From the sequence record PX667085.1: a stretch of 64,000 bases of DNA. One strand, written 5' to 3'. The DNA comes from a phage. Made by a program: the position numbers and the translations under genes. Under the pieces are notes generated by a model. That model ran no database searches. It was not told the DNA's origin and saw nothing but the letters and a program-made list of their open reading frames with translations. Shown piece by piece: positions 9,602-33,586 of this stretch (within the stretch, counting starts at the first letter, position 1; every line of letters starts with the position of its first letter).

Positions 9602-9793
9602 ATGGTTACATATTTTGCTGTAGGAGATAGAGTAGGGACGGCAGGAGAACTTTTGAAGAACAGTGATCGGGACGTTAAGGACATTCTTGCAACCCTTGTG
9701 GATATTTTACAAAGAAAAGAGTTGCTTTCTGATCGAGATGTTGCTAAATTACTTGATATCGGAGGAGATGAACTTCAAAGACTTCCATTTTAA
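9602..9793 (+). CDS. hypothetical protein (63 aa)
   Basis: TAGGAGG then ATG at 9602; the track start at 9569 overlaps nrdG. Confidence 0.45.
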   Translation: MVTYFAVGDRVGTAGELLKNSDRDVKDILATLVDILQRKELLSDRDVAKLLDIGGDELQRLPF

Positions 9794-9808
9794 GTGAGGA
9801 GATAAGTA

Positions 9809-10414
9809 ATGCAACATAGTGTAGTAGTCAACATGCCGAATAGTGGGGATAAATCTTTTGGTGTCCCTGCTAAAAAAGTGTGGAAAGCCCATTTTCATCT
9901 TACTTTATCTAACGTTAGTTCTGAAGAGTTGATGAAAGCAGCTAAGATTATTGGTGCCAAATGCACAACAATTGATTTACATCGGGATACAAAGTCTCAA
10001 CGTGATCGTATGTTAACAAAGTATCAAAGCGATCTCGACACTACTTTAATGTTGCAGTGTGTAGAAAAACTTGAGAATGCAGGTTTCAATGTTGTTCGTT
10101 ACAAACTGGAACGAATGTTTAAACATGTTGCCTGTGTTCTTTTCATGGATCTAAGTAAAGAAAATTACGGAGAAGTTCACATTAAGACTTCAGCAAGTGA
10201 TCCCGAAGTAGAAACAAACTTCTTCCGTATTTCTTCTAATGCTGAAGAAATTGATTACCGATTTTATAATGCTCGCTTATATTCCGCAGAAGATAAGTTG
10301 CGTTTCAATGAAGCGTATGATATGCTCTTGAACAGTGGGATACAGATAAAAGGCTACCACATAGAACAAGTGGTAGTGGACAGTAATCTTAACTTAGACG
10401 CATGGTGGGCTTAA
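9809..10414 (+). CDS. hypothetical protein (201 aa)
   Basis: GAGGAG ribosome binding site; no motifs recognised. Confidence 0.55.
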   Translation: MQHSVVVNMPNSGDKSFGVPAKKVWKAHFHLTLSNVSSEELMKAAKIIGAKCTTIDLHRDTKSQRDRMLTKYQSDLDTTLMLQCVEKLENAGFNVVRYKLERMFKHVACVLFMDLSKENYGEVHIKTSASDPEVETNFFRISSNAEEIDYRFYNARLYSAEDKLRFNEAYDMLLNSGIQIKGYHIEQVVVDSNLNLDAWWA

Positions 10415-13673: not shown

Positions 13674-13698
13674 AGCCTCCTTCGGGAGGCTATTTTAT
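13674..13698 (+). terminator. rho-independent terminator
   Basis: agcctcc-ttcg-ggaggct hairpin followed by a T-rich tail. Confidence 0.6.
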
Positions 13699-19386: not shown

Positions 19387-19631
19387 TCGACGAGCTTGCC
19401 TCTCAAGTCATAGAAAATTATTGGCGCGAGAGAGAAGCTTTCATTATGCGCAGTCTCAAAGAGTATTTCATTGGGACTGTGCGAATGGAAGATATTGTAA
19501 GTAGAGTGGAGATTCATGTATGGCCCGATTATGAAGAATGGGTTGACAAAGAAAATGAAAATGCTATAATTCTTCGTATATACAAACCGGAGATAACATT
19601 AGGAGGAAGAAGTGTTAAACTTCGAAATTGA
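19383..19631 (+). CDS. hypothetical protein (82 aa)
   Basis: ATGA overlap with vWA gene. Confidence 0.45.
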   Translation: MIDELASQVIENYWREREAFIMRSLKEYFIGTVRMEDIVSRVEIHVWPDYEEWVDKENENAIILRIYKPEITLGGRSVKLRN

Positions 19632-19896: not shown

Positions 19897-20499
19897 ATGA
19901 CTGATAAAATTTCCCTGAAAAAAGGCTCTAGCGAAAAAATTTCCCTGAAGAAAGTTGCTCCGGCTCTGAAAGAACTGCGCCTGGAATTCTCTTGGAAATC
20001 TGATTCTAAACTGGATCTGGATGTAAGTGCACTGGTTTGTCGTCACAATGCCGCTGGTAATCCTGAAATGCTGTCTGCACGTCATCTGGTTTGCTATGCT
20101 AACAAGTTTGATCCTGAACGTTCTACCTTCGCTGGTGACGATGTTCGTGATGGAACTGGCAGCATGGAGCAGATTGATATTACTCTGGCTAAAATCTCTC
20201 CTGATGCACAAGAGATTGCCTTTGTTCTGACCATTGATGATGATACAGGTCTGAAACGTTTTGGTCATGCTTCTGAAGGTATGCTTAAAATCTTCGACTC
20301 CGAGCGCAATGTGGAAATTCTGGATTTTGACTTCCTGGCTCCTGAAGTAGCTGGCAACACAATCTGCCACGTGGCTTCCTTGGTTCGTGAAGATGGGGAA
20401 TGGAAGCTGAAAGCATATGGTGTAGGTAAAGCTGGTCTGGATATTTGTGATGTGGTGATGGCCTTCGGTGGTAAAAAAGAATGGTATGAATGTCCATAA
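19897..20499 (+). CDS. terD: TerD-domain protein
   Basis: Matches E. coli TerD (recalled from memory): N-terminal SLKKG...ISLKK, DLDVSAL, GDDVRDGTGS, IAFVLTIDD, DGEWKLKAYG. Confidence 0.8.
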   Translation: MTDKISLKKGSSEKISLKKVAPALKELRLEFSWKSDSKLDLDVSALVCRHNAAGNPEMLSARHLVCYANKFDPERSTFAGDDVRDGTGSMEQIDITLAKISPDAQEIAFVLTIDDDTGLKRFGHASEGMLKIFDSERNVEILDFDFLAPEVAGNTICHVASLVREDGEWKLKAYGVGKAGLDICDVVMAFGGKKEWYECP

Positions 20500-21821: not shown

Positions 21822-22385
21822 ATGATTTATTATATTACTCCCTATCTGACAGGAAATATCGGCAAGGCTATCAATGAAGCCATTGCCGTTCTTCCAGATG
21901 ATAGTTGGGTGTGTTTAAGAGATACCGATACAATGTTCCTCCTACCTGATCAACCATCTATGCTTGAAGAGCTTGTTATGTCAAATCCGCCTTTTGATGT
22001 AATAGGTGCAACTTGTAACAGGTTAGGCAGTGGTTATCAGCTTTTCTCTAACCAAATTAACGATGATCCAGATATTCTAAACCATATAGAATATGCTAAG
22101 ATTGCAAGAGAATATCATAAAGTGAGTGTTGAAGAAGTTCCTTTCGGAACACCTCTAGCAGGTTTCTTCTTGCTTTTTAGAAAATCATTGTGGAATGAAA
22201 TTCCTTTCGAAGAAAAATCTATCCAATTCGACTTAATTTTCTCTCGCACTTTACATGAAAAAGGGAAGAGGTTAGGATTGATGCGGGGAATGTATCTGTT
22301 TCACATTTACAGATTAGGTCAAACAAATCCTCAACGGTCTATACATCATTTATTACACTGTCATGATCACAGTAAAACTATTTAG
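21822..22385 (+). CDS. putative glycosyltransferase (GT-A-like)
   Basis: N-terminal Y..G..N.A and DTD (DxD-like) arrangement; weak. Confidence 0.4.
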   Translation: MIYYITPYLTGNIGKAINEAIAVLPDDSWVCLRDTDTMFLLPDQPSMLEELVMSNPPFDVIGATCNRLGSGYQLFSNQINDDPDILNHIEYAKIAREYHKVSVEEVPFGTPLAGFFLLFRKSLWNEIPFEEKSIQFDLIFSRTLHEKGKRLGLMRGMYLFHIYRLGQTNPQRSIHHLLHCHDHSKTI

Positions 22386-22393
22386 GAGAGAAA

Positions 22394-23077
22394 ATGGAAA
22401 ATATTAAAATTGGAGTGGGTGTTATCACTGTAGGTGTCCGTCCACTTAAAGACTACCTTGTAACAGATCCACGTGCAGATTTTCGAGTATTCAACGATCC
22501 AGATCGTAAAGGTGTAGCTTATGCCAGGAATGAACTTATGCACCAGTTTTATGAAGAAGGTTATGATTATTGGTTTATTTTTGACGACGATTGCTACCCA
22601 GTCATGGAGGGATGGGAAACATACTTTGTAGGTCAAGCTGTCTCTGGAGGATGGGATTTCTTTGGTATGCCGGAGTATTTCAAAGATAAAGTTGTTGGAA
22701 GCAAAGGAGAAGTTATTCTCTGGGAACTTGCAATGTGTCAATTTGCAATGTATTCTCGTGCCGTTGTTGAGAAGATGGGTTATTTCCGTCCTTACACTCA
22801 CGGCTATGGTTTTGAAGATGCTGAATGGGGACACCGTTTGCAAGCTGCTGGTTTGAATCATGGTATTCAGGCAACACCTTGTCCACTTCGTATCATGGCT
22901 TATATCCACCCAGACGATGTTTTTGGAAACAATCCTATGCCTTTTGCTAATCTGACAAAAGAAGAGAAAGAAGCTGCTATCGGGATTAACTGGGAAGAAT
23001 ATAAAGCATCTTTAGAGGATATTAAAAATGGGAAAATCCGAATTTCCTATGAGGAGGCACTGGCACATGTCAAATAA
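22394..23077 (+). CDS. family 2-like glycosyltransferase (GT-A)
   Basis: GVAYARNE, FIFDDD (DxD) and GYGFEDAEWGHRL (ED motif) in canonical GT2 order. Confidence 0.6.
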   Translation: MENIKIGVGVITVGVRPLKDYLVTDPRADFRVFNDPDRKGVAYARNELMHQFYEEGYDYWFIFDDDCYPVMEGWETYFVGQAVSGGWDFFGMPEYFKDKVVGSKGEVILWELAMCQFAMYSRAVVEKMGYFRPYTHGYGFEDAEWGHRLQAAGLNHGIQATPCPLRIMAYIHPDDVFGNNPMPFANLTKEEKEAAIGINWEEYKASLEDIKNGKIRISYEEALAHVK

Positions 23078-24014
23078 AAAATGGTCTAAACTAAAAATTG
23101 ATGCAAAACCTCATAGCGGTTGTGACTATCATCGTATTGTTATGCCATTTAACAACAATAATTTTCAACCTAAGAAAGATATTGTTGTGTTTAACCGTAT
23201 CCACTCTAAAGGTGCAGAATACGTTTTATCTTTGAAACGTCAAGGTGTTAAGGTTGTTGTAGATTTAGATGATTTTTACCAACTTAATCCAGAGCATTAT
23301 TTAGCAAGTCTATACGAGTCAAACACTCATGCTATTGTAGCTATGGTTAAGCTTGCTGATGTGGTTATTGTGACTACAGAATATTTGGCATATAAGATCC
23401 GTCACTTAAATAGAAATGTCGTTGTGATCCGAAATGCACTTCCTTTTGATAGCGGACAATTCACTTTGTCAAATGATCGTTCATCCGGTACCCCTGTTGT
23501 ATGGGCTGGCGGTGCTAGTCACGAACCAGATTTACGACTAGTCTCTAATACTTTCGATGATGAACTTCTTACTATTGCGGGATATGAAGCATCACAAAGC
23601 ATCACGGGACAAGAGTGGATTAAGATTCGCAGAAATTTACCAAATGCCAAATATAAAGCTGCTGTAAAAGATTTAGATAATTACATGAGTGTTTACGAAA
23701 GTCATGCTATTGCTATAGCTCCTTTGGTAGACAATGATTTTAATAATTGTAAAAGTAATCTCAAAATCCTGGAAGCTGGAGCAAAAGGTATTCCGATTAT
23801 TTGTTCTAAGGTATTACCTTATTTTAACCCTGTAGATGCTCGCGCTGTTGCTTACGCAGAGAATAAAGCAGAATGGCATTACGAAATTGTTAAGCTTCTT
23901 CGCAATCCAAACTATCGGGAAGATCGTGGCTTGTTCTTGGCTGAACATGTTCGAACACATTATAATCTGGCAGATGCAAACGAGTTGCGACGCCAGGTTA
24001 TTGAAAGTTTGTAG
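23067..24014 (+). CDS. putative glycosyltransferase (GT-B-like), paralog 1
   Basis: GAGGAGG then ATG at 23067; KSNLKILEAGAKGIPIICS resembles the GT-B C-terminal motif; paralog of the next gene. Confidence 0.45.
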   Translation: MSNKKWSKLKIDAKPHSGCDYHRIVMPFNNNNFQPKKDIVVFNRIHSKGAEYVLSLKRQGVKVVVDLDDFYQLNPEHYLASLYESNTHAIVAMVKLADVVIVTTEYLAYKIRHLNRNVVVIRNALPFDSGQFTLSNDRSSGTPVVWAGGASHEPDLRLVSNTFDDELLTIAGYEASQSITGQEWIKIRRNLPNAKYKAAVKDLDNYMSVYESHAIAIAPLVDNDFNNCKSNLKILEAGAKGIPIICSKVLPYFNPVDARAVAYAENKAEWHYEIVKLLRNPNYREDRGLFLAEHVRTHYNLADANELRRQVIESL

Positions 24015-24021
24015 GTGAAGT

Positions 24022-24966
24022 ATGGGACAAATAATTCTTGACAATCGTAACGGAATCAATTATAGTGTCTGCGATTTCCATAGGGTAGTGCTGCCTTACT
24101 CAAGGCAGTTCTCTTCACAACCTAAATACAACGTTTTCGTTTTTAACGGAGTGCCAACAAAAGGTAAAGAGGGCTTTTTAGCCCTTAAAAACCTAGGCTT
24201 TAAAATGGTTATGGATTTGGATGACTCTTTAGTTATTCCAAAAGGACACATGTTAGAAGGTATTTTTGAATCAGGTATTCGTGAACATTTAAAATGGTTT
24301 TTAGAGCACAGTGATCTTGTTACAACTACGACACCTGCCTTGCAAGTTGAACTTTCACAATACAATGATAATGTGCACATAATCCCTAATGGACTTCCTT
24401 ATGACGAAGGTCAATTTGTGTTGACCCGTGATCGCTACTCCAAAACTCCATTAGTCTGGGCTGGAAGTGAAACACATAAGCAAGATTTGGCTATCTTGCC
24501 CGATTTTGGTAAAGATCTTACAATATGTGGTTTTCGTAGGGATTCTGAAGTTTTAAGTAGTCGTGAATGGTCTGTAATCAGAGAAAATGTAGCACCAACT
24601 TGTGTTTATGAAGGTGTAAGACCATATGCCAACTACATGGAATCTTACGATGGTCATCAAATCAGTCTTGCGCCACTGATTGATAACGTGTTTAATAATG
24701 CAAAAAGCAATCTTAAAATTCTTGAGGCAGGTGCTAAGGGTTTACCTTTGATCTGTTCTCCTCGTGAGAATTATCATACACAAGAGTTTAAAGATCTGTT
24801 GTTCTTTGCTGAAACACCTTCCGAGTGGAAAGATATTACGGAATACTTATTAAGTGCTCCCGATGTTTGCATGGAGAAAGGATTAGCATTAGCTAAGTAT
24901 GTCAGGACTCATTATCACATTGATGTGTTGAATGAGCGTCGTAGACTTTTATTTGAGGAGCTATAA
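24022..24966 (+). CDS. putative glycosyltransferase (GT-B-like), paralog 2
   Basis: Shares CD(Y/F)HR, DLDD, TPVVWAG and KSNLKILEAGAKG motifs with paralog 1. Confidence 0.45.
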   Translation: MGQIILDNRNGINYSVCDFHRVVLPYSRQFSSQPKYNVFVFNGVPTKGKEGFLALKNLGFKMVMDLDDSLVIPKGHMLEGIFESGIREHLKWFLEHSDLVTTTTPALQVELSQYNDNVHIIPNGLPYDEGQFVLTRDRYSKTPLVWAGSETHKQDLAILPDFGKDLTICGFRRDSEVLSSREWSVIRENVAPTCVYEGVRPYANYMESYDGHQISLAPLIDNVFNNAKSNLKILEAGAKGLPLICSPRENYHTQEFKDLLFFAETPSEWKDITEYLLSAPDVCMEKGLALAKYVRTHYHIDVLNERRRLLFEEL

Positions 24967-25256: not shown

Positions 25257-27035
25257 GTGTCGCACATTATAACTAAATATGGATTTGATGTTGATCTTAG
25301 CAAGGAAGGGCATACAGGTTGTCCGCGCTGCATGAAAAATGGCAAGGATCGCTCTCGTAATAACCTGATGGTTTATGGATTAGATTCTAATGGAGAGCAT
25401 AAAGGTGCTAAGTGCTTTGCGTGTGAATACACTATTCCTAGCGTAGAATGGTTACGAGAAAATGGTGAAGTTTTAGAAGAAGAGGAGGAGATTGTGGGTT
25501 CGGAATTTAATAAACAGATTCATCGTAAAATTGTTCAAGAAACATCAACCAACCCACGTGGTTATCGAGGAATTAAAGAAAAAGTTTCATCTTTCTATGG
25601 TGTTCGTTATGAATACCGTCAGGAAGGGGATCAGATGGTAGTAGAAAGTTGTTTATATCCGACTACTATCGGTAAAGAATTGGTTGGTTTTAAGCGTCGT
25701 ATTCATCCTAAAGATTTCAGTAAACCTATTGGTCAAGTAGGTAAAGATGTAGATCTTTTTGGACAAATTCGTTTTGCAGACCGTTCTCATACTGTGGTAA
25801 TTACAGGTGGTGAACACGATGCTCTGGCAGCTTATCAAATGCTATCTGAAAACTTGGACAACAAGTATGAACTTCCAGCAGTAGTTAGTGGCACAACTGG
25901 TGAAACCAGTATGTATAAACAAGTTCAGGCACAATATCCTTTCTTTGAAAAATTTAAGAAGATTATTGTTTGCATGGATAATGACAAAGCAGGTAATGAA
26001 GCATTTGAAAATATTGTTAAGGTGCTGCCTCGTAACAAAGTCTACCGTATGCAGATGGATCTTAAGGATGCCAATCAGTATCTGGAAGAAGGTCGTGCAA
26101 AAGATTTCGTAAAAGCTTTTTGGAGTGCTCGTCTATACACCCCAGCAGGTGTTTATGCTTCTAATGTCTTGTATGAAGCTGCATTAGAATGCTTGGAATC
26201 CAAGATGATTACCTTGCCTCCTTTTATGCGTGTAGCTGCAAACATGCTGGGTGGTGGTTTAGTAGAGGAAGAGATTACAGTCATCCTGGCAAAGACCAGT
26301 ATCGGTAAAACTTTAATGGTGAACGAGATCACCAAACATATTATTGTTGCGCACCCAGAACATACCCTAGGTATCCTGTCCTTGGAAGCAACTTATAAGA
26401 AATATTCTCGTAACCTGTTGTCCTCGTTCCTGCATATTCCTCTACACAGGAAAACACCGGAAGAGAAATTTCAAATCTTGGAAGAGAATAAAGAAAAAAT
26501 CCTAGATTTTTACGAAAGAGAAGATGGATCACCACGTTTTTATGTGTGTGATGATCGTGGAGCAGATGTGGAGTCTATCAAAGAAAAAGTTTTGGAGATG
26601 ATCATCTATTTTGGAGTAACAATTCTTGTTATCGACCCTTATTCTGATTTGCTTTCTGGTATGGATGTTCAAGCCCAGGAAGAGTTAGCAACATGGTTGA
26701 AGCGCATCATGAAAGAGTATGCTATAACTATTATCGTCATCTCACACGTTAAGAAATCGGCTAATGGTGGCAATGAACACTTAACAGAGGACGATGCAAT
26801 GGGTAGTAGTTTCTTGGCTAAAGGTGCTGGTATTACCTTGGCTTTGGAACGAGATAAAGCCGCTGAAGACCCTGTAGAACGCAATACGACTCATTGCTTT
26901 ATCCTAAAAAACCGTGAGTTCTCGGAAACTGGTCCGGCAGGGCAGTTTTACTATGACATTAGAACTGCAACTCTGCATGACAAAGAGCAGTATTTCAACA
27001 ATCCTGCTAATTTGCCTACGGATAGCAACTATTAA
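25257..27035 (+). CDS. bifunctional DNA primase/helicase (T7 gp4-like)
   Basis: N-terminal Zn-ribbon CPRC...CFAC, TOPRIM-like centre, DnaB-type Walker A KTSIGKT; GTG start. Confidence 0.8.
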   Translation: MSHIITKYGFDVDLSKEGHTGCPRCMKNGKDRSRNNLMVYGLDSNGEHKGAKCFACEYTIPSVEWLRENGEVLEEEEEIVGSEFNKQIHRKIVQETSTNPRGYRGIKEKVSSFYGVRYEYRQEGDQMVVESCLYPTTIGKELVGFKRRIHPKDFSKPIGQVGKDVDLFGQIRFADRSHTVVITGGEHDALAAYQMLSENLDNKYELPAVVSGTTGETSMYKQVQAQYPFFEKFKKIIVCMDNDKAGNEAFENIVKVLPRNKVYRMQMDLKDANQYLEEGRAKDFVKAFWSARLYTPAGVYASNVLYEAALECLESKMITLPPFMRVAANMLGGGLVEEEITVILAKTSIGKTLMVNEITKHIIVAHPEHTLGILSLEATYKKYSRNLLSSFLHIPLHRKTPEEKFQILEENKEKILDFYEREDGSPRFYVCDDRGADVESIKEKVLEMIIYFGVTILVIDPYSDLLSGMDVQAQEELATWLKRIMKEYAITIIVISHVKKSANGGNEHLTEDDAMGSSFLAKGAGITLALERDKAAEDPVERNTTHCFILKNREFSETGPAGQFYYDIRTATLHDKEQYFNNPANLPTDSNY

Positions 27036-27054
27036 GGGCTTCGGCCCTTTTATT
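27034..27054 (+). terminator. rho-independent terminator
   Basis: aagggc-ttcg-gccctt hairpin then T-rich tail. Confidence 0.6.
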
Positions 27055-27065
27055 AAAAATACCTG

Positions 27066-27094
27066 TTGACAACTTTGCGGAAGGGACTTATACT
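27066..27094 (+). promoter_or_regulatory. sigma70-like promoter (TTGACA, 17 nt spacer, TATACT)
   Basis: Consensus -35, optimal spacer, 5 of 6 -10. Confidence 0.65.
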
Positions 27095-27127
27095 TGTCTC
27101 ATCAACCAAACAAGAGGAGAAGTAAAA

Positions 27128-27559
27128 ATGCGTATGACAATCGATCTGAATGCAAAAGTTAAAGCTGCTGGTGCTCTGGGTGCTGGTGTTATTAAACACA
27201 AACAAGCGTTGGCATTTGCCATCCCACATATGATTGTTGAGGATCATCCTGAAGAGTTTGCTGTAAAAGTTGTTGAGAACAATGTCTCTGTTATTGAACA
27301 TCTTCCAACTGGACGTTCTTACCGTGTTGTTTCTTCTAAAGGTTTCCGTTTCGATGTAAGCCCTTCTTTCACAAAAGGTGCTGGTCGTAGTAAAGTGGGT
27401 ATTCTTTCTTACAAATATTATATCGATAAAGTTGCAGATGGTGTTGCATTCTGTCGTGTAAGTGAAGGTAAAGTAGATATCATCTTTAAAAATACTAAAA
27501 ACATGGTTATTTCTGATGATGGTAAAGTTGACCTCACTATTGAGTTCGCTAACAACTAA
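27128..27559 (+). CDS. hypothetical protein (143 aa) in its own transcription unit
   Basis: Strong ribosome binding site AGAGGAG; flanked by terminator/promoter upstream. Confidence 0.6.
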   Translation: MRMTIDLNAKVKAAGALGAGVIKHKQALAFAIPHMIVEDHPEEFAVKVVENNVSVIEHLPTGRSYRVVSSKGFRFDVSPSFTKGAGRSKVGILSYKYYIDKVADGVAFCRVSEGKVDIIFKNTKNMVISDDGKVDLTIEFANN

Positions 27560-27568
27560 GGAGGACTA

Positions 27569-28363
27569 TTGAGCAAGTTGAACACACTTGATCAATATTA
27601 CACTAACCCCGCTTATGCGGGGTTCTTATGTGATAAGATCAAAGAAATTTTTGGAGAGGAAGCTAACTACGTAGAACCATCTGCGGGAGAAGGAGCTTTC
27701 TCTTCTTGTTTTAAAAACATAACTTCTTTTGATATTGACCCTAAGTTTGAAGATTGTATTGAGGCAGATTTTTTAGCTCAATCTGTTGAGTCTGTTGGTA
27801 GTGTAACTGCTTTTGTCGGTAATCCTCCATTTGGAAAAAATGCTAGTCTTGCCATTAAATTCTTTAACCATTGTGCTGAAATGCTGGATAACGAAGGTGG
27901 TATTTGTTTTATCTTGCCTCGCACATTTCAAAAAATCTTTTTTGCACACAAGCTAAATCCCCATATGCATCTTCTTTACGAAGAAGAATGTCCAAAAGGA
28001 TCTTTTATTCTTCATGGAGAACCTTGGGATGTTCCTTGTGTATTCCAGGTATGGATTAAACGCAACGAGAAGCGTTCTCCCGTTGTTTTAGGAGAGAATC
28101 GACTATTCGTATTAGGTAACAGTAAAGACTACGATATAGCCGTTAGGAGAGCGGGAGCAAGTGCAGGTAAAGTGTTATCAGAAGAAGATTCTTTATCTGA
28201 AGCATCTACCTATTTTTTAAAAGCCTTGACTTCTGATCTTAAAACGCGTATCATTGAGGCTTACCCGTTACTTAAAGCTGAAGCTAGTAAAACTGCGGGA
28301 GTAAGAAGTTTAAGTTTAAAAGAACTTCAGTGGGTTCTGGAGAACATTAGAAAGGAGGAATAG
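27569..28363 (+). CDS. N6-adenine DNA methyltransferase (gamma-class-like)
   Basis: AdoMet motif EPSAGEGAF and catalytic GNPPFG; TTG start after AAGGAGG. Confidence 0.6.
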   Translation: MSKLNTLDQYYTNPAYAGFLCDKIKEIFGEEANYVEPSAGEGAFSSCFKNITSFDIDPKFEDCIEADFLAQSVESVGSVTAFVGNPPFGKNASLAIKFFNHCAEMLDNEGGICFILPRTFQKIFFAHKLNPHMHLLYEEECPKGSFILHGEPWDVPCVFQVWIKRNEKRSPVVLGENRLFVLGNSKDYDIAVRRAGASAGKVLSEEDSLSEASTYFLKALTSDLKTRIIEAYPLLKAEASKTAGVRSLSLKELQWVLENIRKEE

Positions 28364-30960
28364 TGAGTAAGTTTACATGGGATATTGAAGCAAACGGATT
28401 GTTGAATAATGACACTATTGATTATTTAGCTAGTCCTTATCGTCTCAAAGACACATTTCAAATGCACTGTATTGTCTTAGAGAACCATGAAACAGGAGAA
28501 ATAGTAGCTTTCCACGATGGCCCTAAATACATCTTTGATGGGCGTCCTTACGAAGAGTCAGATGGTAAATACACATATGTTCTTAAAGAGTATGTGGCGC
28601 AAGATTACACACATTTTCAACTAAAAGATTTCCCAGATTTTATTAATCATGAAGGTTATTTTAAAGACAAGCCTGAATATCTAGTTGAAATGGCTGTGGC
28701 TCACAACGGTATCAACTACGACTGGTTGGCTACAAAACTGTTTTATGGATTAGATTACAGTGTTAAATATAATACGTGGGGCAAAAATAAGGTAAAACTT
28801 ATTGACTCCTTGATTTTGAGTAAAGTGTTAAACCCAGATCGAAAGATTGAGGGCAAATCAGGACATAGCTTGGCAGCACTTTCTCGAAAAGCAGGTGGTG
28901 ATGTAAAAATAGATTTCCGTAAAGAGATTCCAGAAGAAGATCGATTTAAGACTTTTGCTGCGGATATGCTTTATTACTGTATCTATGACAACAAAGCCAA
29001 TACGAGCGTATATAATTACCTTATGGAAGAATGGGGTGATTATGATAAATGGGAAGGTCCATTTGAACTTGAACAACGTGTAGCAGACATTATTACACGC
29101 CAGGAACACCGTGGGTTTGCTTTTAACATGAAACAAGCAGAAGAGAACCTTGCTTTTTTGGATGCAGAAATGGAGCGTCTTCGTTTACTCGTTGAGCCTA
29201 TTTTGCCACCTAAACCAGCAACAAAAGGTTATCTTAAGGCTTTTATTCCACCTAAGTTGCAAATTAAAAAGAACTTAGAGCCAACTAACCATATGATCAA
29301 TTTTGCTAAGAAACATGATGGTCATTTGGAAGAGAGGGATGGCGATTGGTGGTTAGTTATGTTGGGGAAAGAGTGGAAACTGCCAGTTGCAGCAGATGAG
29401 CCTCTATGTGATCCTAACATTCCTGCAACATTGAACGATACAACCCATATTAAAAACTGGCTTGTAGGATTAGGTTGGGTACCGTCTGAATATAAAGATA
29501 AAGACTTGACGCTTAAATCTGGCACCAAAATTAAAAAGAGCGAGGAAGAACTTCAGAAAGGTATTAGAGCTTACGTTGAGCAAACTCTATCTTCTAATTT
29601 TTGTCAGGATCGTTGTGATCATCTGGAGTGCACACCGGAAACTTTGGAAAGGAAGATTCAAGAGCGTATAGCAAAAGGTAAAGGTCGCGGTCTTAAAGTA
29701 TTGACTAACCCGTGTTTTACCAAAGGTCAGGAAAAAGAAATTTGTCCTAACCTGCAAGCTTTGGGTGAGAAGTTTCCTTATGCTACACAGATTGTAGAAT
29801 ACTTAACGTATAAGCATCGTAGGAACTCTATTTTAGGTGGCGGTGCTGATTGGGAAGAAGATGAAGAAGATCAAGAATACGATAAAGGTTTCTTAGCCGC
29901 AGTAAGGGCAGATGGTCGTATTCCTACCCCAGCCGCTACATGTGATGCTGCAACTTCTCGTATGAAGCACAGATCTGTAGCTAATATTCCTCGTGTCACA
30001 TCTTTGTTTGGATGGGAGATGCGTAACTTGTTTGGTGTAGAGGTTCCTAAATACTTCCAGATTGGCTACGACTTCGACTCTTTAGAAGCAAAAATTGAAT
30101 CGCATTACTGTTGGCGGTACGAGCCGGAGCCACACGAATATTGTAACGCTCTGTTGTTAGAGAAACCTAATGATGTTCACACAATGATGGCAAAACGTAT
30201 CACTGAAACTATTGGACGCAAATTTGAACGTAGTCCTGCTAAATCTGTTAAGTATGGTATTACCTATGGTGCACAAGCCGACAAGGTTGCTAAAACAATT
30301 GGTAGTGATAAGTTTACAGGTCAGTTGGTGTTCGATGCTTTCTGGGAAGCTGCGTTCCCATTGGCGCGTCTTAAAGAACGTTTAAACGATTTCTGGGTTA
30401 AGACTGGTAAACAATATGTTTTAGGTATTGACGGTCGTAAGGTTCCTACTCGTTCTGCTCACGCGATTCTTAACTCTCTGTTCCAAAGCGGTGGGGTTAT
30501 CTGTGCTAAACGTGCAATGGTTATTTATGACGATATGATCGAAGAAGAAGGACTAAGTGTTGACTTCTTTAAAGATGACTGGAAGAATAAAGACTTCGTG
30601 CAACAAATGATTGCATATCACGATGAAGCCCAGCTTGAAGTTTCTCGTAACCTTGTAGAATTCAAATGGTTTTCACCGGAATCATTAGGTTGGAAGAAAG
30701 TAGACGATCCTGAAGAACAAAAGAAAATTGATAAAGAATGCCTTGCTAAAGTTGAAGAATGGAAGCATAATAAGGAAAAAGAGACAGGGCAAATTTGGGC
30801 TAACATTCATGAATCTCCCAAAGGTGGATGGTTTACAGCTTATAGTCGGGCAGGTGAACTTGCTGCTTTAGCTGTTACTAAGGCTGGAGAATTTTACAAT
30901 CTTAACGTTCAGCTTACTGCCGGATATGATGTGGGTAATTCCTGGGCGTCTTGTCACTAG
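28363..30960 (+). CDS. family A DNA polymerase with 3-prime-5-prime exonuclease
   Basis: Exo I DIEANGL near N-terminus; motif B-like KYGITYGAQ; motif C HDE; GTG start. Confidence 0.8.
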   Translation: MSKFTWDIEANGLLNNDTIDYLASPYRLKDTFQMHCIVLENHETGEIVAFHDGPKYIFDGRPYEESDGKYTYVLKEYVAQDYTHFQLKDFPDFINHEGYFKDKPEYLVEMAVAHNGINYDWLATKLFYGLDYSVKYNTWGKNKVKLIDSLILSKVLNPDRKIEGKSGHSLAALSRKAGGDVKIDFRKEIPEEDRFKTFAADMLYYCIYDNKANTSVYNYLMEEWGDYDKWEGPFELEQRVADIITRQEHRGFAFNMKQAEENLAFLDAEMERLRLLVEPILPPKPATKGYLKAFIPPKLQIKKNLEPTNHMINFAKKHDGHLEERDGDWWLVMLGKEWKLPVAADEPLCDPNIPATLNDTTHIKNWLVGLGWVPSEYKDKDLTLKSGTKIKKSEEELQKGIRAYVEQTLSSNFCQDRCDHLECTPETLERKIQERIAKGKGRGLKVLTNPCFTKGQEKEICPNLQALGEKFPYATQIVEYLTYKHRRNSILGGGADWEEDEEDQEYDKGFLAAVRADGRIPTPAATCDAATSRMKHRSVANIPRVTSLFGWEMRNLFGVEVPKYFQIGYDFDSLEAKIESHYCWRYEPEPHEYCNALLLEKPNDVHTMMAKRITETIGRKFERSPAKSVKYGITYGAQADKVAKTIGSDKFTGQLVFDAFWEAAFPLARLKERLNDFWVKTGKQYVLGIDGRKVPTRSAHAILNSLFQSGGVICAKRAMVIYDDMIEEEGLSVDFFKDDWKNKDFVQQMIAYHDEAQLEVSRNLVEFKWFSPESLGWKKVDDPEEQKKIDKECLAKVEEWKHNKEKETGQIWANIHESPKGGWFTAYSRAGELAALAVTKAGEFYNLNVQLTAGYDVGNSWASCH

Positions 30961-31377: not shown

Positions 31378-31596
31378 ATGCGTAAATTAGTGAGCTTTAA
31401 TGTTTCAATTCTTGTTGATGAACAAAATGAAGATGTTATTAAAGGTCTTGCAAATAAGATTGCAGGTGGAATGACGGAAGCTGAAGTGTGGGAAGAATGT
31501 GCTCGACTTTATGAGGAAGGTGTTATTGAGGTCTTGGGGGATGAGATTAATATGGACGATGTTGTAAAAGTAACTGTGGAGCGTATCAATGACTAA
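31378..31596 (+). CDS. hypothetical protein (72 aa)
   Basis: AAGGAGAA ribosome binding site. Confidence 0.5.
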   Translation: MRKLVSFNVSILVDEQNEDVIKGLANKIAGGMTEAEVWEECARLYEEGVIEVLGDEINMDDVVKVTVERIND

Positions 31597-32182
31597 ATCA
31601 AAACAAATCAATATTGCCAAAGAAATTCTTACCGTATTAAAGATCGCTGATCCTAATTCTGTCTTGGCTGGCGGTGCTGTTCGTGATTGGCGTATTCTTG
31701 ATATTGCTGGACGTGATCTGGATTTCTATACATCCCTTCCTGCACATCGGACTGAAGAACAAATACAAGGATTAATTGCATCTGCTTTAATGGGAACCAA
31801 TATTCGTAAACTAGGAAACAAAGAGGCTTCTGACAATTATGAAGGTGTTACTGGTCTTAAACACGTTTTTGAGTTTGAACGTGATGGTCAGCTTTGCAAC
31901 CTTATGATTATGGAACCAAGCGTAATGACAACCTTTCTAAATGAGTTCGATCTGTCCATCTGCCAGGCTGCATTTGATGGGAAGGATTGTTATTATTCTA
32001 AAGATTTTGAAACAACCTTGGAAACAGGGATCTGCTTCTTGCACAAAGACGTTAGAGAAGATGCCAAACACGTTATTAAAATTGCTACACGTTTCCCATA
32101 TCTTCGTTTTGTGAAAGAGGTTAAGGTTCCACGTCCACCTCAAGTAGATACCAGATTGGAAGAAGATGATATTCCTTGGTAA
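31589..32182 (+). CDS. Pol-beta-superfamily nucleotidyltransferase (CCA-adding/poly(A) polymerase head-domain-like)
   Basis: LAGGAVRDWRILDIAGRDLDFY matches the GGxVRD...DxD head motif; only 197 aa. Confidence 0.5.
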   Translation: MTKSKQINIAKEILTVLKIADPNSVLAGGAVRDWRILDIAGRDLDFYTSLPAHRTEEQIQGLIASALMGTNIRKLGNKEASDNYEGVTGLKHVFEFERDGQLCNLMIMEPSVMTTFLNEFDLSICQAAFDGKDCYYSKDFETTLETGICFLHKDVREDAKHVIKIATRFPYLRFVKEVKVPRPPQVDTRLEEDDIPW

Positions 32183-32227
32183 TTAAAGCTTGACAATATT
32201 AAACATTTTATGATAGGATAGCATTCA

Positions 32228-32620
32228 ATGACTGAACGTTCTAAGATAGCTGTTGAAACTGTTTATGGAAACTATACCAGTTTGACACTAGTTGAGAAAA
32301 ATGTTGTAGGTCTTGACAACTCTTTTTATTTTCAAATTTTGGTTATTCAAGGTGGAAACAAGAAGCTAACTGCTCGTGTTGAAACATCTGAAATAATTGA
32401 AACCACTGTTACAAACAAAGAATTCATTTCACTGCAAGATACAATCCGAAACGTTATAGACGAAGAAGGCAAAGCTGCCACAATTAAACTCGGAGGTTTC
32501 CCAGTGCAAATAGTTCATTTTCCTAATGGTGAAATTGGAGTTGGAATAGGTAAAGGTAAATACCTGTTAGAGCAAGATGATATGGAAAGACTCCGTTCTT
32601 TCTGTGCAAAATTAATGTAA
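32228..32620 (+). CDS. hypothetical protein (130 aa)
   Basis: ORF after TTGACA-containing intergenic region; weak ribosome binding site. Confidence 0.45.
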   Translation: MTERSKIAVETVYGNYTSLTLVEKNVVGLDNSFYFQILVIQGGNKKLTARVETSEIIETTVTNKEFISLQDTIRNVIDEEGKAATIKLGGFPVQIVHFPNGEIGVGIGKGKYLLEQDDMERLRSFCAKLM

Positions 32621-32636
32621 TGTAGAGGAGATAATA

Positions 32637-33524
32637 ATGTCCGTAATTAATACTGAAACTGATCGTAAAGGCAAAACCGTAACTTATGCAACTGGTATCG
32701 TAGACTACGTTAAACTGGATAAATTCGCTGAACCTAAAACTTTTCATTGGGAAGGAAAAACGATTGTTTCAACTCACCGAGCTTCTCTTGTTCTGAAAGA
32801 GAAAGGTGCTAAACCAGATGAGAAAGGTGTTTGGATTTCTCTTGGTGACATTGAACTGAAAGAAGGTTATGAAAACCTGCAAGTCAAAGAAGGTGATAAT
32901 TGGATCACTATTGAAAAAGGTGTAGAAGTAAGTATTGATATTGATCGCGTTGATAATAAAGGCGGTAAAACTTACTACAATACTAAAAAATCTCGTATTA
33001 CAGTATTGTCTACCGATGGTGTTCAGAAGTCTAACAAATCTTCTGGCAATAAAGGTTCCAACGATGCTGCTCCTAAGCAATCCTATAAAAAACGTGATAC
33101 TGTAGGTCTGGAAACTGGTCACGCAGTAAATGGTGCACTGGAACTGATTCGTAATGGTGTTAAAGGCGATGCTTTCGATATCGCTGGGGTTGTTCAATCT
33201 GCAACTGTCACGCTGAAATCGGAAATTGCTGAATCTCGTGGCGTTGATATTAATGATTATGATCTTGGGGCATCTGTTGGTCACGCTATTCTTAATGCTT
33301 GTAAAGACCATACCATTAAGACTGTATCTGTAGAAGATCTGATTGACTCTGCTCGTAAAGTTCTAGCTCTGTCTGATAAAGTTGCTGCTGCCATTCGTGG
33401 TTCCGCAGAACAACCTAAGAAAGAAGAGAAGAAAGAAGTTAAAAAGCCTGAACCACAACCAGAACCAACTCCAAGCAATCAAGAAGAACCTCCAATGGAC
33501 TTCGATGATGATATTCCATTCTGA
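32637..33524 (+). CDS. putative single-stranded DNA-binding protein
   Basis: C-terminus EPPMDFDDDIPF matches the E. coli SSB C-terminal tip (from memory); basic/acidic linker precedes it. Confidence 0.55.
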   Translation: MSVINTETDRKGKTVTYATGIVDYVKLDKFAEPKTFHWEGKTIVSTHRASLVLKEKGAKPDEKGVWISLGDIELKEGYENLQVKEGDNWITIEKGVEVSIDIDRVDNKGGKTYYNTKKSRITVLSTDGVQKSNKSSGNKGSNDAAPKQSYKKRDTVGLETGHAVNGALELIRNGVKGDAFDIAGVVQSATVTLKSEIAESRGVDINDYDLGASVGHAILNACKDHTIKTVSVEDLIDSARKVLALSDKVAAAIRGSAEQPKKEEKKEVKKPEPQPEPTPSNQEEPPMDFDDDIPF

Positions 33525-33551
33525 TCTTATTGATTTATAAAGAGTTTTTAT

Positions 33552-33586
33552 AAAAGAAAAGGGAACCTTTGCGGGTTCCCTTTTTT
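33552..33586. terminator. bidirectional rho-independent terminator
   Basis: gggaacc/ggttccc hairpin flanked by an A-run and T6 between convergent genes. Confidence 0.7.

Follow-up and report, generated by a model that had tools for sequence, protein, structure and literature searches.

The 64,000-nucleotide stretch of phage DNA studied here (sequence record PX667085.1, hereafter the window) carries, between a primase/helicase gene and the genes of a DNA methyltransferase and a DNA polymerase, a small open reading frame (ORF) for a protein of 143 amino acids. Judging from its sequence elements and those of related phages, this small gene very likely forms a conserved, self-contained high-expression cassette. 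The role of its product is more tentative: it may be an abundant protein that binds DNA or phosphate and works with the methylation module, a possibility that we favor with more doubt than confidence. As a compromise between these two parts, the whole explanation, cassette and protein together, is a plausible account that stops just short of being probable.

The elements of the proposed cassette are the following:

27034-27056 (+): T1, putative intrinsic terminator at the stop codon of the primase/helicase gene, with the hairpin AAGGGC-UUCG-GCCCUU (27034-27049) and then UUUUAUU
27048-27063 (+): A/T-rich tract TTTTATTAAAAATACC, possibly an UP element, at about -53 to -38
27066-27094 (+): sigma-70-type promoter TTGACA-17-TATACT, 11/12 consensus, with the -35 box at 27066-27071 and the -10 box at 27089-27094
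27112-27121 (+): Shine-Dalgarno sequence AAGAGGAGAA, with 8 nucleotides between its GAGGAG core and the ATG
27128-27559 (+): small ORF of 143 amino acids with an ATG start, corresponding to phAPEC8_00189 'hypothetical protein'; PHROG 9938
27605-27633 (+): T2, hairpin AACCCCGC-UUAU-GCGGGGUU (27605-27624) followed by the tail CUUAUGUGA, in codons 13-19 of the methyltransferase gene

A putative high-expression cassette

An earlier note on this DNA had described a terminator, a near-perfect TTGACA-17-TATACT promoter and a strong ribosome-binding site ahead of a 143-amino-acid ORF located between primase-helicase and methyltransferase/polymerase, and all of them are present at the positions listed above. 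The promoter is intergenic, is oriented toward the small gene and lies 34 nucleotides upstream of its ATG; transcription is predicted to start near 27101. The A/T-rich tract at 27048-27063 may correspond to an UP element, whose proximal subsite has the consensus AAAAAARNR.

The promoter itself is ordinary and is no new observation, the site being already annotated in phAPEC8 as 'putative host dependent promoter determined with MEME' (JX561091). Moreover, the region shows no enrichment of promoter-like sites taken as a class (46 observed versus 40.1 +/- 5.8 in shuffles) and about half of the ten window sites reaching at least 11/12 lie inside genes or on the wrong strand. Therefore, a consensus match says little by itself. 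Locally, a match of at least 11/12 is found in 0.12% of the shuffles of the 92-nucleotide gap (local P = 0.0012), and only two of the 14 intergenic gaps of this strand reach 11/12.

Relatives of the small gene with available DNA (identity in brackets) were the loci L017 (85%), L007, which is Klebsiella phage 05F01 (59%), L012/L013 (57%), L008/L009 (50%), L010 (40%) and, at about 25-30%, L016, L014, L015, L003, L005 and L023; a related-loci search from a narrower alignment gave three loci. Promoters occur at the same position in L007 (TTGACA-17-TAAGAT), L010 (TTGACT-17-TATTGT), L012 (TTGACT-18-TATGCT) and L016 (TTGACA-17-TACTAT), and the site found there in L008 is weak (TTGCAA-17-TAATCT). As read from these sequences, the position of the promoter is kept in four or five diverged lineages. 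The ribosome-binding site AAGAGGAGAA is identical in the window, L007 and L008.

T1 has the form of an intrinsic terminator, that is, a GC-rich hairpin directly followed by a U-tract. Its stem has 6 base pairs, and the 43-nucleotide fold has an energy of -10.3 kcal/mol (z -2.4). Terminators with a UUCG loop are also found at 13674-13691 (+) and 56879-56862 (-) and, in L008, just after 6432; since they recur in this phage and its relatives, T1 is supported as a genuine terminator type of the group.

With 0.505 on the Sharp-Li scale for E. coli, the small ORF ranks second among the 64 window genes in codon adaptation index, in a top group that also includes a TerD-domain gene (0.54), a gene resembling those of single-stranded DNA-binding proteins (SSB; 0.48) and the tail sheath gene (0.42). 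Its homologue ranks first of 15 genes in L007, of 16 in L008, of 8 in L012 and of 17 in L010. Together with the conserved promoter position and ribosome-binding site, these ranks lend computational support to the independent high-level expression that had been proposed in the earlier note.

The small gene and the methyltransferase gene are separated by only 9 nucleotides, so that a single-gene unit looks open-ended at first sight. T2 starts 46 nucleotides beyond the stop codon of the small gene, within the methyltransferase ORF, and CUUAUGUG follows its stem. This stem has 8 base pairs; the 51-nucleotide fold has an energy of -20 kcal/mol (z -5.6), and none of 200 shuffles was equally stable. 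Among 2000 synonymous-codon resamplings that kept the peptide and followed the codon usage of the phage, only two were equally stable, indicating a stability far beyond what the encoded peptide needs, and 12 control segments along the methyltransferase gene gave z values from -1.7 to +1.7. T2 makes use of rare codons, namely CCC (4% of Pro codons), GCG (7% of those for Ala) and GGG (13% of those for Gly). Neither T1 nor T2 was called by the stock terminator scan, since A-U pairs that extend the stems shift its T-count window; both were recovered when the scan was relaxed and anchored on the GC core. An Rfam scan of 26800-27900 revealed no real RNA family, and the match of T2 to the RsmY model (E 0.53) is confined to the terminator end of that model.

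Comparable elements occur in relatives. In L017, the T2 hairpin is unchanged despite substitutions on its flanks. L007 has a hairpin of its own, located a few codons farther downstream (AUGCCGCA-UAUCUU-UGCGGCAU followed by UAUUCAUUCU; equally stable in 2 of 2000 resamplings), and L010 yet another at about +90 (AAUGCCCC-UGUG-GGGGCAUU followed by AUUUAUU; 50 of 2000). Furthermore, textbook terminators stand right after the small gene in two lineages that have no adjacent methyltransferase gene: CCUCCC-UUCG-GGGAGG-UAUUUUUU in L008 and AUAUGCCGCA-GAAA-UGCGGCAUAU-UUAUUU in L012/L013. The stem sequence in L012 is that of the intragenic hairpin of L007, which suggests that the hairpin was kept when the methyltransferase gene was deleted. 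Elements of the T2 type are thus found in five lineages, two of them classical terminators, and we conclude from these sequences that an element marking the transcript end directly after the small gene is probably under selection across the clade. Such an element would terminate, attenuate or stabilize the transcript. Hence, the 'insulated single-gene unit' of the earlier note, which had not considered T2 or its analogues in relatives, fits better than could be known at that time.

Several points weigh against this picture of the cassette. T1 has no counterpart outside the genus (L007 and L008 compared), and the U-tract of T2, UUCUUAUGU, is moderate and interrupted, so that T2 could instead be an element of messenger RNA (mRNA) stability or processing. 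The homologues of rV5-like and marine phages are operonic and have a low codon-adaptation rank; therefore, abundance is not a family-wide property and high expression is predicted for the phAPEC8-like clade only. In addition, the literature searched contained no transcript, protein or phenotype data for the small gene or its homologues, nor any transcriptome or phenotype study of Phapecoctavirus, Vequintavirus or Stephanstirmvirinae.

Alternatively, the regulatory reading may be over-interpreted: the promoter would be real, T2 would not be a terminator, and the small gene would be the first cistron of an operon including the methyltransferase and polymerase genes. The hairpin at 27605-27624 could then be an RNase III or RNase E processing site, a stability element or a brake on methyltransferase translation. 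Besides the interrupted U-tract and the failure of the stock scan to call T2, this explanation is favored by the 9-nucleotide spacing, by the AAGGAGG ribosome-binding site that the methyltransferase gene has of its own and by the distant homologues that are clearly operonic with the methyltransferase gene. However, it does not fit with the unmistakable terminators, hairpin plus U-run, found at the same place in L008 and L012/L013, nor with a hairpin whose position moves between lineages while its shape and U-rich tail remain, nor with the promoter-like site that the polymerase gene has of its own. We regard it as unlikely.

In the cassette reading that we favor, host RNA polymerase carrying sigma-70 would start near 27101, just past the terminator T1 of the primase/helicase transcript. 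A 27-nucleotide leader with a very strong ribosome-binding site would lead to translation of the codon-optimized ORF, and most transcripts would stop at, or be stabilized by, T2 within the first 60 nucleotides of the methyltransferase gene, giving a monocistronic mRNA of about 530 nucleotides. The methyltransferase would be made by read-through only, and the polymerase from its own internal promoter. Whereas the sequence elements, their conservation and the codon bias are computational results, transcription start, termination and protein abundance are what we infer from them.

Two further observations concern expression in the window. The TerD-domain gene at 19897-20499 (+) (Pfam TerD 3.2e-28), which has the highest codon adaptation index, lies about 330 nucleotides downstream of a 12/12 consensus promoter (19543-19570) located in a 510-nucleotide stretch with small ORFs. 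The SSB-like gene at 32637-33524 (index 0.477; C-terminal match to an SSB PHROG) has an upstream TTGACA-18-TAGGAT promoter with a TG extension (region 32190-33586) and ends at a bidirectional terminator (33555-33586) at a convergent junction with structural genes; from its sequence, it appears to have the same high-expression design as the small-gene cassette.

Predicted fold and residues of the 143-amino-acid protein

The protein matches the unannotated PHROG 9938 over its full length (E 9.8e-63), whereas searches of Pfam, NCBIfam, PADLOC and PDB sequences with the single sequence and with a 32-sequence profile gave no match. Its family is small, with about 30 cluster representatives among 1.84 billion, all apparently viral. 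Nearly all members are single-domain proteins of about 110-155 amino acids, the exception being one weak, repetitive match of 658 amino acids. With AlphaFold, the predicted local distance difference test score rose from 81 with 8 sequences to 91.7 with the 32-sequence alignment (predicted template-modeling score 0.85), the loop 81-90 staying uncertain. The core alpha-beta-beta-beta-alpha-beta fold of the PD-(D/E)XK superfamily is present in the predicted model, which makes it highly probable that the protein has this restriction-endonuclease-like fold. The closest fold matches are small dimeric restriction enzymes and resolvases, with the methyl-dependent enzymes NhoI and DpnI among the top ones. 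A fold search of BFVD retrieved only the family itself, including the rV5-type homologue (E 9e-11, TM 0.77).

Only K83, G84 and R87 are invariant in all 32 sequences; S80 is found in 31, and P33 and G132 are nearly invariant. The invariant residues sit in a flexible S-x-T-K-G-x-G-R loop (K83-G84-x-G86-R87). No acidic residue is invariant in the 32-sequence alignment, and the (D/E)XK motif was not found on strand 3, where the residues opposite position 50 are V68-S69-S70 (x-[C/S]-S or V-[C/S]-S in the family). The nearest lysine or arginine on this strand belongs to R64-Y65-K66 in the family consensus, which is S-Y-R in the window, and has no acidic partner. With 20 K+R versus 16 D+E, the protein is mildly basic (net charge about +4). 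Its basic charge and nuclease-like fold led us to reject a DNA mimic of the Ocr/ArdA type. We read the model as that of a nuclease fold that may have been retained for binding rather than for canonical cleavage.

Other features of the family pull in the opposite direction. E38 in helix 1 (21 of 32 sequences) and, where strand 2 begins, D/E50 (25 of 32), both present in the window protein, would fall at the first two canonical catalytic positions according to a mapping based on secondary-structure register. In addition, K83 could be a migrated catalytic lysine in a rearranged active site. Together, these residues leave room for nuclease activity. The protein could then be an active nuclease, either the restriction half of a restriction-modification pair of the phage, which would degrade DNA of the host or of competing phages that is unmethylated, or a structure-specific resolvase resembling Hjc, with a site made of E38, D/E50 and the migrated K83. 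The fold and its structurally nearest relatives, small dimeric restriction enzymes and resolvases, are in agreement with this, and active-site variants such as QVK are known in the superfamily (PMC11347163). Nevertheless, the V-[C/S]-S at the strand-3 position and the lack of an invariant acidic residue argue against it, as do top-rank codon optimization, which enzymes rarely need, and the annotated EndoVII-type resolvase that an rV5-like relative already has.

Sequence identity to the small dimeric restriction enzymes of the PvuII/BisI type (NhoI, 8q5n; N-terminal domain of Eco15I, 8q5m; PvuII, 1ni0) is only 7-10%. The (D/E/Q)XK motif, which is essential in NhoI and Eco15I (PMC11347163), is replaced here by V-[C/S]-S, and the invariant residues lie instead in the K-G-x-G-R loop. 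None of the active-site substitutions made in the enzyme that matches best in structure left it active (PMC11347163). Unlike such enzymes, the small gene also persists without a methyltransferase gene in three lineages and is predicted to be very abundantly expressed. As for the archaeal Holliday-junction resolvase Hjc (2wcw, 1gef, 1ob8, 1hh1), the family has not kept its catalytic residues (E, D and ExK), and loop 77-94, which is specific to the family, has no identifiable counterpart in it.

Association with a DNA methyltransferase

The small gene is flanked by the following features:

25257-27035 (+): primase/helicase gene (Pfam Toprim_2 3.6e-09, DnaB_C 2.3e-15), annotated as primase/helicase in phAPEC8
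27569-28363 (+): gamma-class amino-methyltransferase gene with a TTG start and an AAGGAGG ribosome-binding site at 27558-27564
28226-28254 (+): promoter-like TTGACT-17-TATCAT, in the 3' end of the methyltransferase gene, 109 nucleotides before the polymerase start
28363-30960 (+): family-A DNA polymerase gene (Pfam DNA_pol_A 1.4e-13)

The promoter-like site at 28226-28254 is also found in L017, and L007 has TTGACA-17-TAGAGT ahead of its polymerase gene; expression of the polymerase could therefore bypass T2. The methyltransferase shows motif I EPSAGEGAF and motif IV NPPF and matches a PHROG of DNA methyltransferases (1.1e-10). An N6-adenine methyltransferase gene of the same family adjoins the small gene in 11 of 14 lineages (phmmer 1e-19 to 1e-95). 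It lies immediately downstream, often overlapping, in the window, L007, L010, L016, L014, L015, L003 (a Vibrio phage), L005, L022 and L023, whereas the order is reversed in rV5-type phages, in which it is immediately upstream. The wider neighborhoods vary (primase and polymerase; exonuclease and thymidylate synthase; ThyX and ribonucleotide reductase; small ORFs) while the pair persists, hence the pairing is tighter than general synteny. In L008/L009, L012/L013 and L021, the small gene has no adjacent methyltransferase gene, these loci being contigs in which a distant copy is possible. This indicates that the protein does not strictly need the methyltransferase, which tells against a role tied to methylation.

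The rV5-type ORF 101 (152 amino acids) starts 38 nucleotides within the 3' end of the methyltransferase gene (L002 5001-5038, L018 1501-1538), with no promoter seen there and low codon adaptation.

This pairing bears on the nuclease alternative too. As in type II restriction-modification systems, a gene for a nuclease-fold protein adjoins that of a methyltransferase with S-adenosylmethionine-binding and (N/D)PP(Y/F) motifs, and the ORFs often overlap as in restriction-modification operons. However, the nuclease of such systems should never occur without its protecting methyltransferase, and the three lineages on contigs cited above keep the small gene alone; a cognate restriction enzyme would destroy its own phage in that situation. 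Furthermore, T2 lies between the two genes and is predicted to yield far more small protein than methyltransferase, the opposite of what a restriction-modification system tolerates. A classical restriction enzyme is thus unlikely, and so is an active nuclease of any of the kinds considered.

In the explanation that we favor, the protein would have lost the canonical (D/E)XK motif and would act stoichiometrically as a binder of nucleic acid or phosphate rather than as a classical nuclease. It would work with the N6-adenine methyltransferase module, for instance in that it reads or shields DNA or presents it for methylation. Fold and methyltransferase linkage are computational results; DNA binding and any link to methylation are deduced from them. 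Known systems provide partial analogies. SPO1 TF1 and T4 gene 32 are monocistronic high-expression cassettes for abundant phage DNA-binding proteins, and the small gene would resemble them in its own strong promoter, ribosome-binding site, terminator, codon optimization and location in a DNA-metabolism region; it has no sequence or fold kinship with them, and DNA binding is in its case only inferred. In vsr-dcm, where a gene for a protein with a restriction-endonuclease-like fold overlaps the methyltransferase gene, and in Mu com-mom, small genes are coupled to a DNA-modification gene. By analogy, the present pair may be of this kind, with a short ORF abutting or overlapping a DNA-modification gene and kept with it across neighborhoods.

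Distribution of the small gene

The 3-kb stretch around the small gene is 100% identical to Escherichia phage ECO340P1 and shares 99% identity with phAPEC8 and with dozens of further genomes of Phapecoctavirus (subfamily Stephanstirmvirinae); by its sequence, the window is a Phapecoctavirus genome, that of a phAPEC8-type coliphage. The small gene is present in all of the approximately 65 Phapecoctavirus records with at least 95% identity and is syntenic in relatives of 40-60% identity. A full-length homologue was found in only 66 phage records, 65 from Phapecoctavirus and one that is most likely Klebsiella phage 05F01. The slot between the primase/helicase and polymerase genes holds another gene in Justusliebigvirus ESCO9 (L019 6284-6679), for a 131-amino-acid 'endonuclease' with no Pfam match, holds no gene in Citrobacter phage Tr1 (L020) and contains additional small ORFs in L012/L013. 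We rejected the 131-amino-acid 'endonuclease' as a homologue (hhalign probability 0.5%). Since the slot is variable within Stephanstirmvirinae, the small gene is accessory and does not belong to the core replication machinery. It is missing from sister genera; hence, the variation is at the level of genera and not of strains.

At this locus, about 20 records labeled as Campylobacter phages (MG0656xx) have sequence of the rV5 type (Vequintavirus). The record OP562383, named 'Acinetobacter phage vB_AbaM_ABPW7', shares 99.7% identity with the E. coli phage studied here. These host labels look doubtful.

A gene with its own promoter between primase/helicase and polymerase genes could also encode a free-standing homing endonuclease resembling I-Ssp6803I, as the T4 seg and mob genes are free-standing homing endonuclease genes with their own promoter. 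We consider this extremely improbable: contrary to homing endonuclease genes, the small gene is not sporadic, as its presence throughout Phapecoctavirus and its synteny show, and it has the top codon adaptation of its locus. Moreover, it is inherited with the methyltransferase gene and not with a target gene, and its product has no conserved catalytic residues. From the PD-(D/E)XK homing endonuclease I-Ssp6803I (2ost), it likewise differs in having no catalytic motif.

A possible role in counter-defense

Neighboring genes include four consecutive glycosyltransferase genes at 21822-24966 (+), just upstream of the primase/helicase gene. They match glycosyltransferase PHROGs and, weakly, TET-associated and T4-type DNA glucosyltransferases; they are kept in L007, L008 and L012 and could serve DNA or surface-glycan modification. 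Downstream, at 31589-32182 (+), lies a nucleotidyltransferase-like gene for which the phAPEC8 annotation reads tRNA nucleotidyltransferase/poly(A) polymerase. The L007 homologue of this gene (9602-10189) has a precomputed match to Pfam Gad2 (anti-Gabija), and the window copy gives weak matches only (PolyA_pol E 0.07, CCA-transferase E 0.04).

The most attractive special case of a stoichiometric binder is an abundant early factor for anti-defense or host takeover that neutralizes a host system, an unconventional nuclease being the main alternative. Such a factor might shield methylated sites from methyl-dependent (type IV) nucleases or compete with them for these sites, act as a dead-subunit decoy of a host PD-(D/E)XK nuclease or sequester a nucleotide signal with its K-G-x-G-R loop. 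In favor of this role are an early-type sigma-70 promoter with expression signals of stoichiometric level, the location in a variable slot (an unrelated gene in ESCO9, empty in Tr1), the Gad2-flagged gene a few kb downstream in L007, the methyl-dependent NhoI and DpnI among the top fold matches and the co-inheritance with a methyltransferase gene. Methyltransferases are typical anti-restriction devices. However, PADLOC, Pfam, NCBIfam and the annotated PHROGs gave no match, the basic protein is no mimic of the Ocr/ArdA type, its fold likeness to methyl-dependent enzymes is no better than that to Hjc or I-Ssp6803I, and no phenotype is reported in the literature searched. Anti-defense is thus possible but unlikely. 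The earlier note had expected a host-takeover or anti-defense factor and had named structure prediction as a check. This part of it does not hold up as well as its prediction of independent expression, in that no model of a defense or anti-defense protein was matched and the protein is nuclease-like in fold and mildly basic, points that count against such a role or are neutral.

Ksap2, the protein of phage Bas60 that triggers KpAvs2, was also considered, both being small Stephanstirmvirinae proteins. It was rejected on account of its distribution, since full-length homologues of the small gene are confined to the 66 phage records mentioned above with none in the ESCO9 slot, and of its fold, whose description sets it apart from the 143-amino-acid protein (PMC11564622). 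With regard to a virion component, the text of the rV5 proteomics study does not mention gp100 or gp101.

Significance

Our analysis adds a fold, a motif and a methyltransferase linkage to the unannotated PHROG 9938. Beyond the promoter that was already annotated, the T2 element, the recurrence of promoter and ribosome-binding site in diverged relatives and the codon-adaptation ranks are new. One more specific idea is that the protein is a catalytically retired nuclease-fold partner that reads, shields or targets DNA in stoichiometric amounts, within a two-gene DNA-marking module whose dosage of partner versus methyltransferase would be set by a T2-type terminator that has arisen repeatedly. 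This idea is quite unlikely as it stands. If true, the partner could, for example, keep methyl-dependent nucleases of the host away from methylated phage DNA, or link the methylation state to replication or packaging.

If confirmed, a terminator or attenuator located in the first 20 codons of a methyltransferase gene, and invented anew with other sequences in related phages, would provide a clear example from nature of a transcriptional signal shaping a coding sequence, and a device for obtaining a high ratio of adjacent products. In the protein family, a restriction-enzyme fold would go together with an invariant K-G-x-G-R loop and the absence of the catalytic motif. In rV5-like, phAPEC8-like, Vibrio and marine phages, the family is inherited along with a single family of methyltransferases, which points to an accessory role in the DNA methylation of phages. 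Collections for therapy and biocontrol make wide use of Phapecoctavirus and Vequintavirus phages. Hence, if our prediction is confirmed, a gene annotated as encoding a 'hypothetical protein' would be among the most strongly expressed early genes of these phages.

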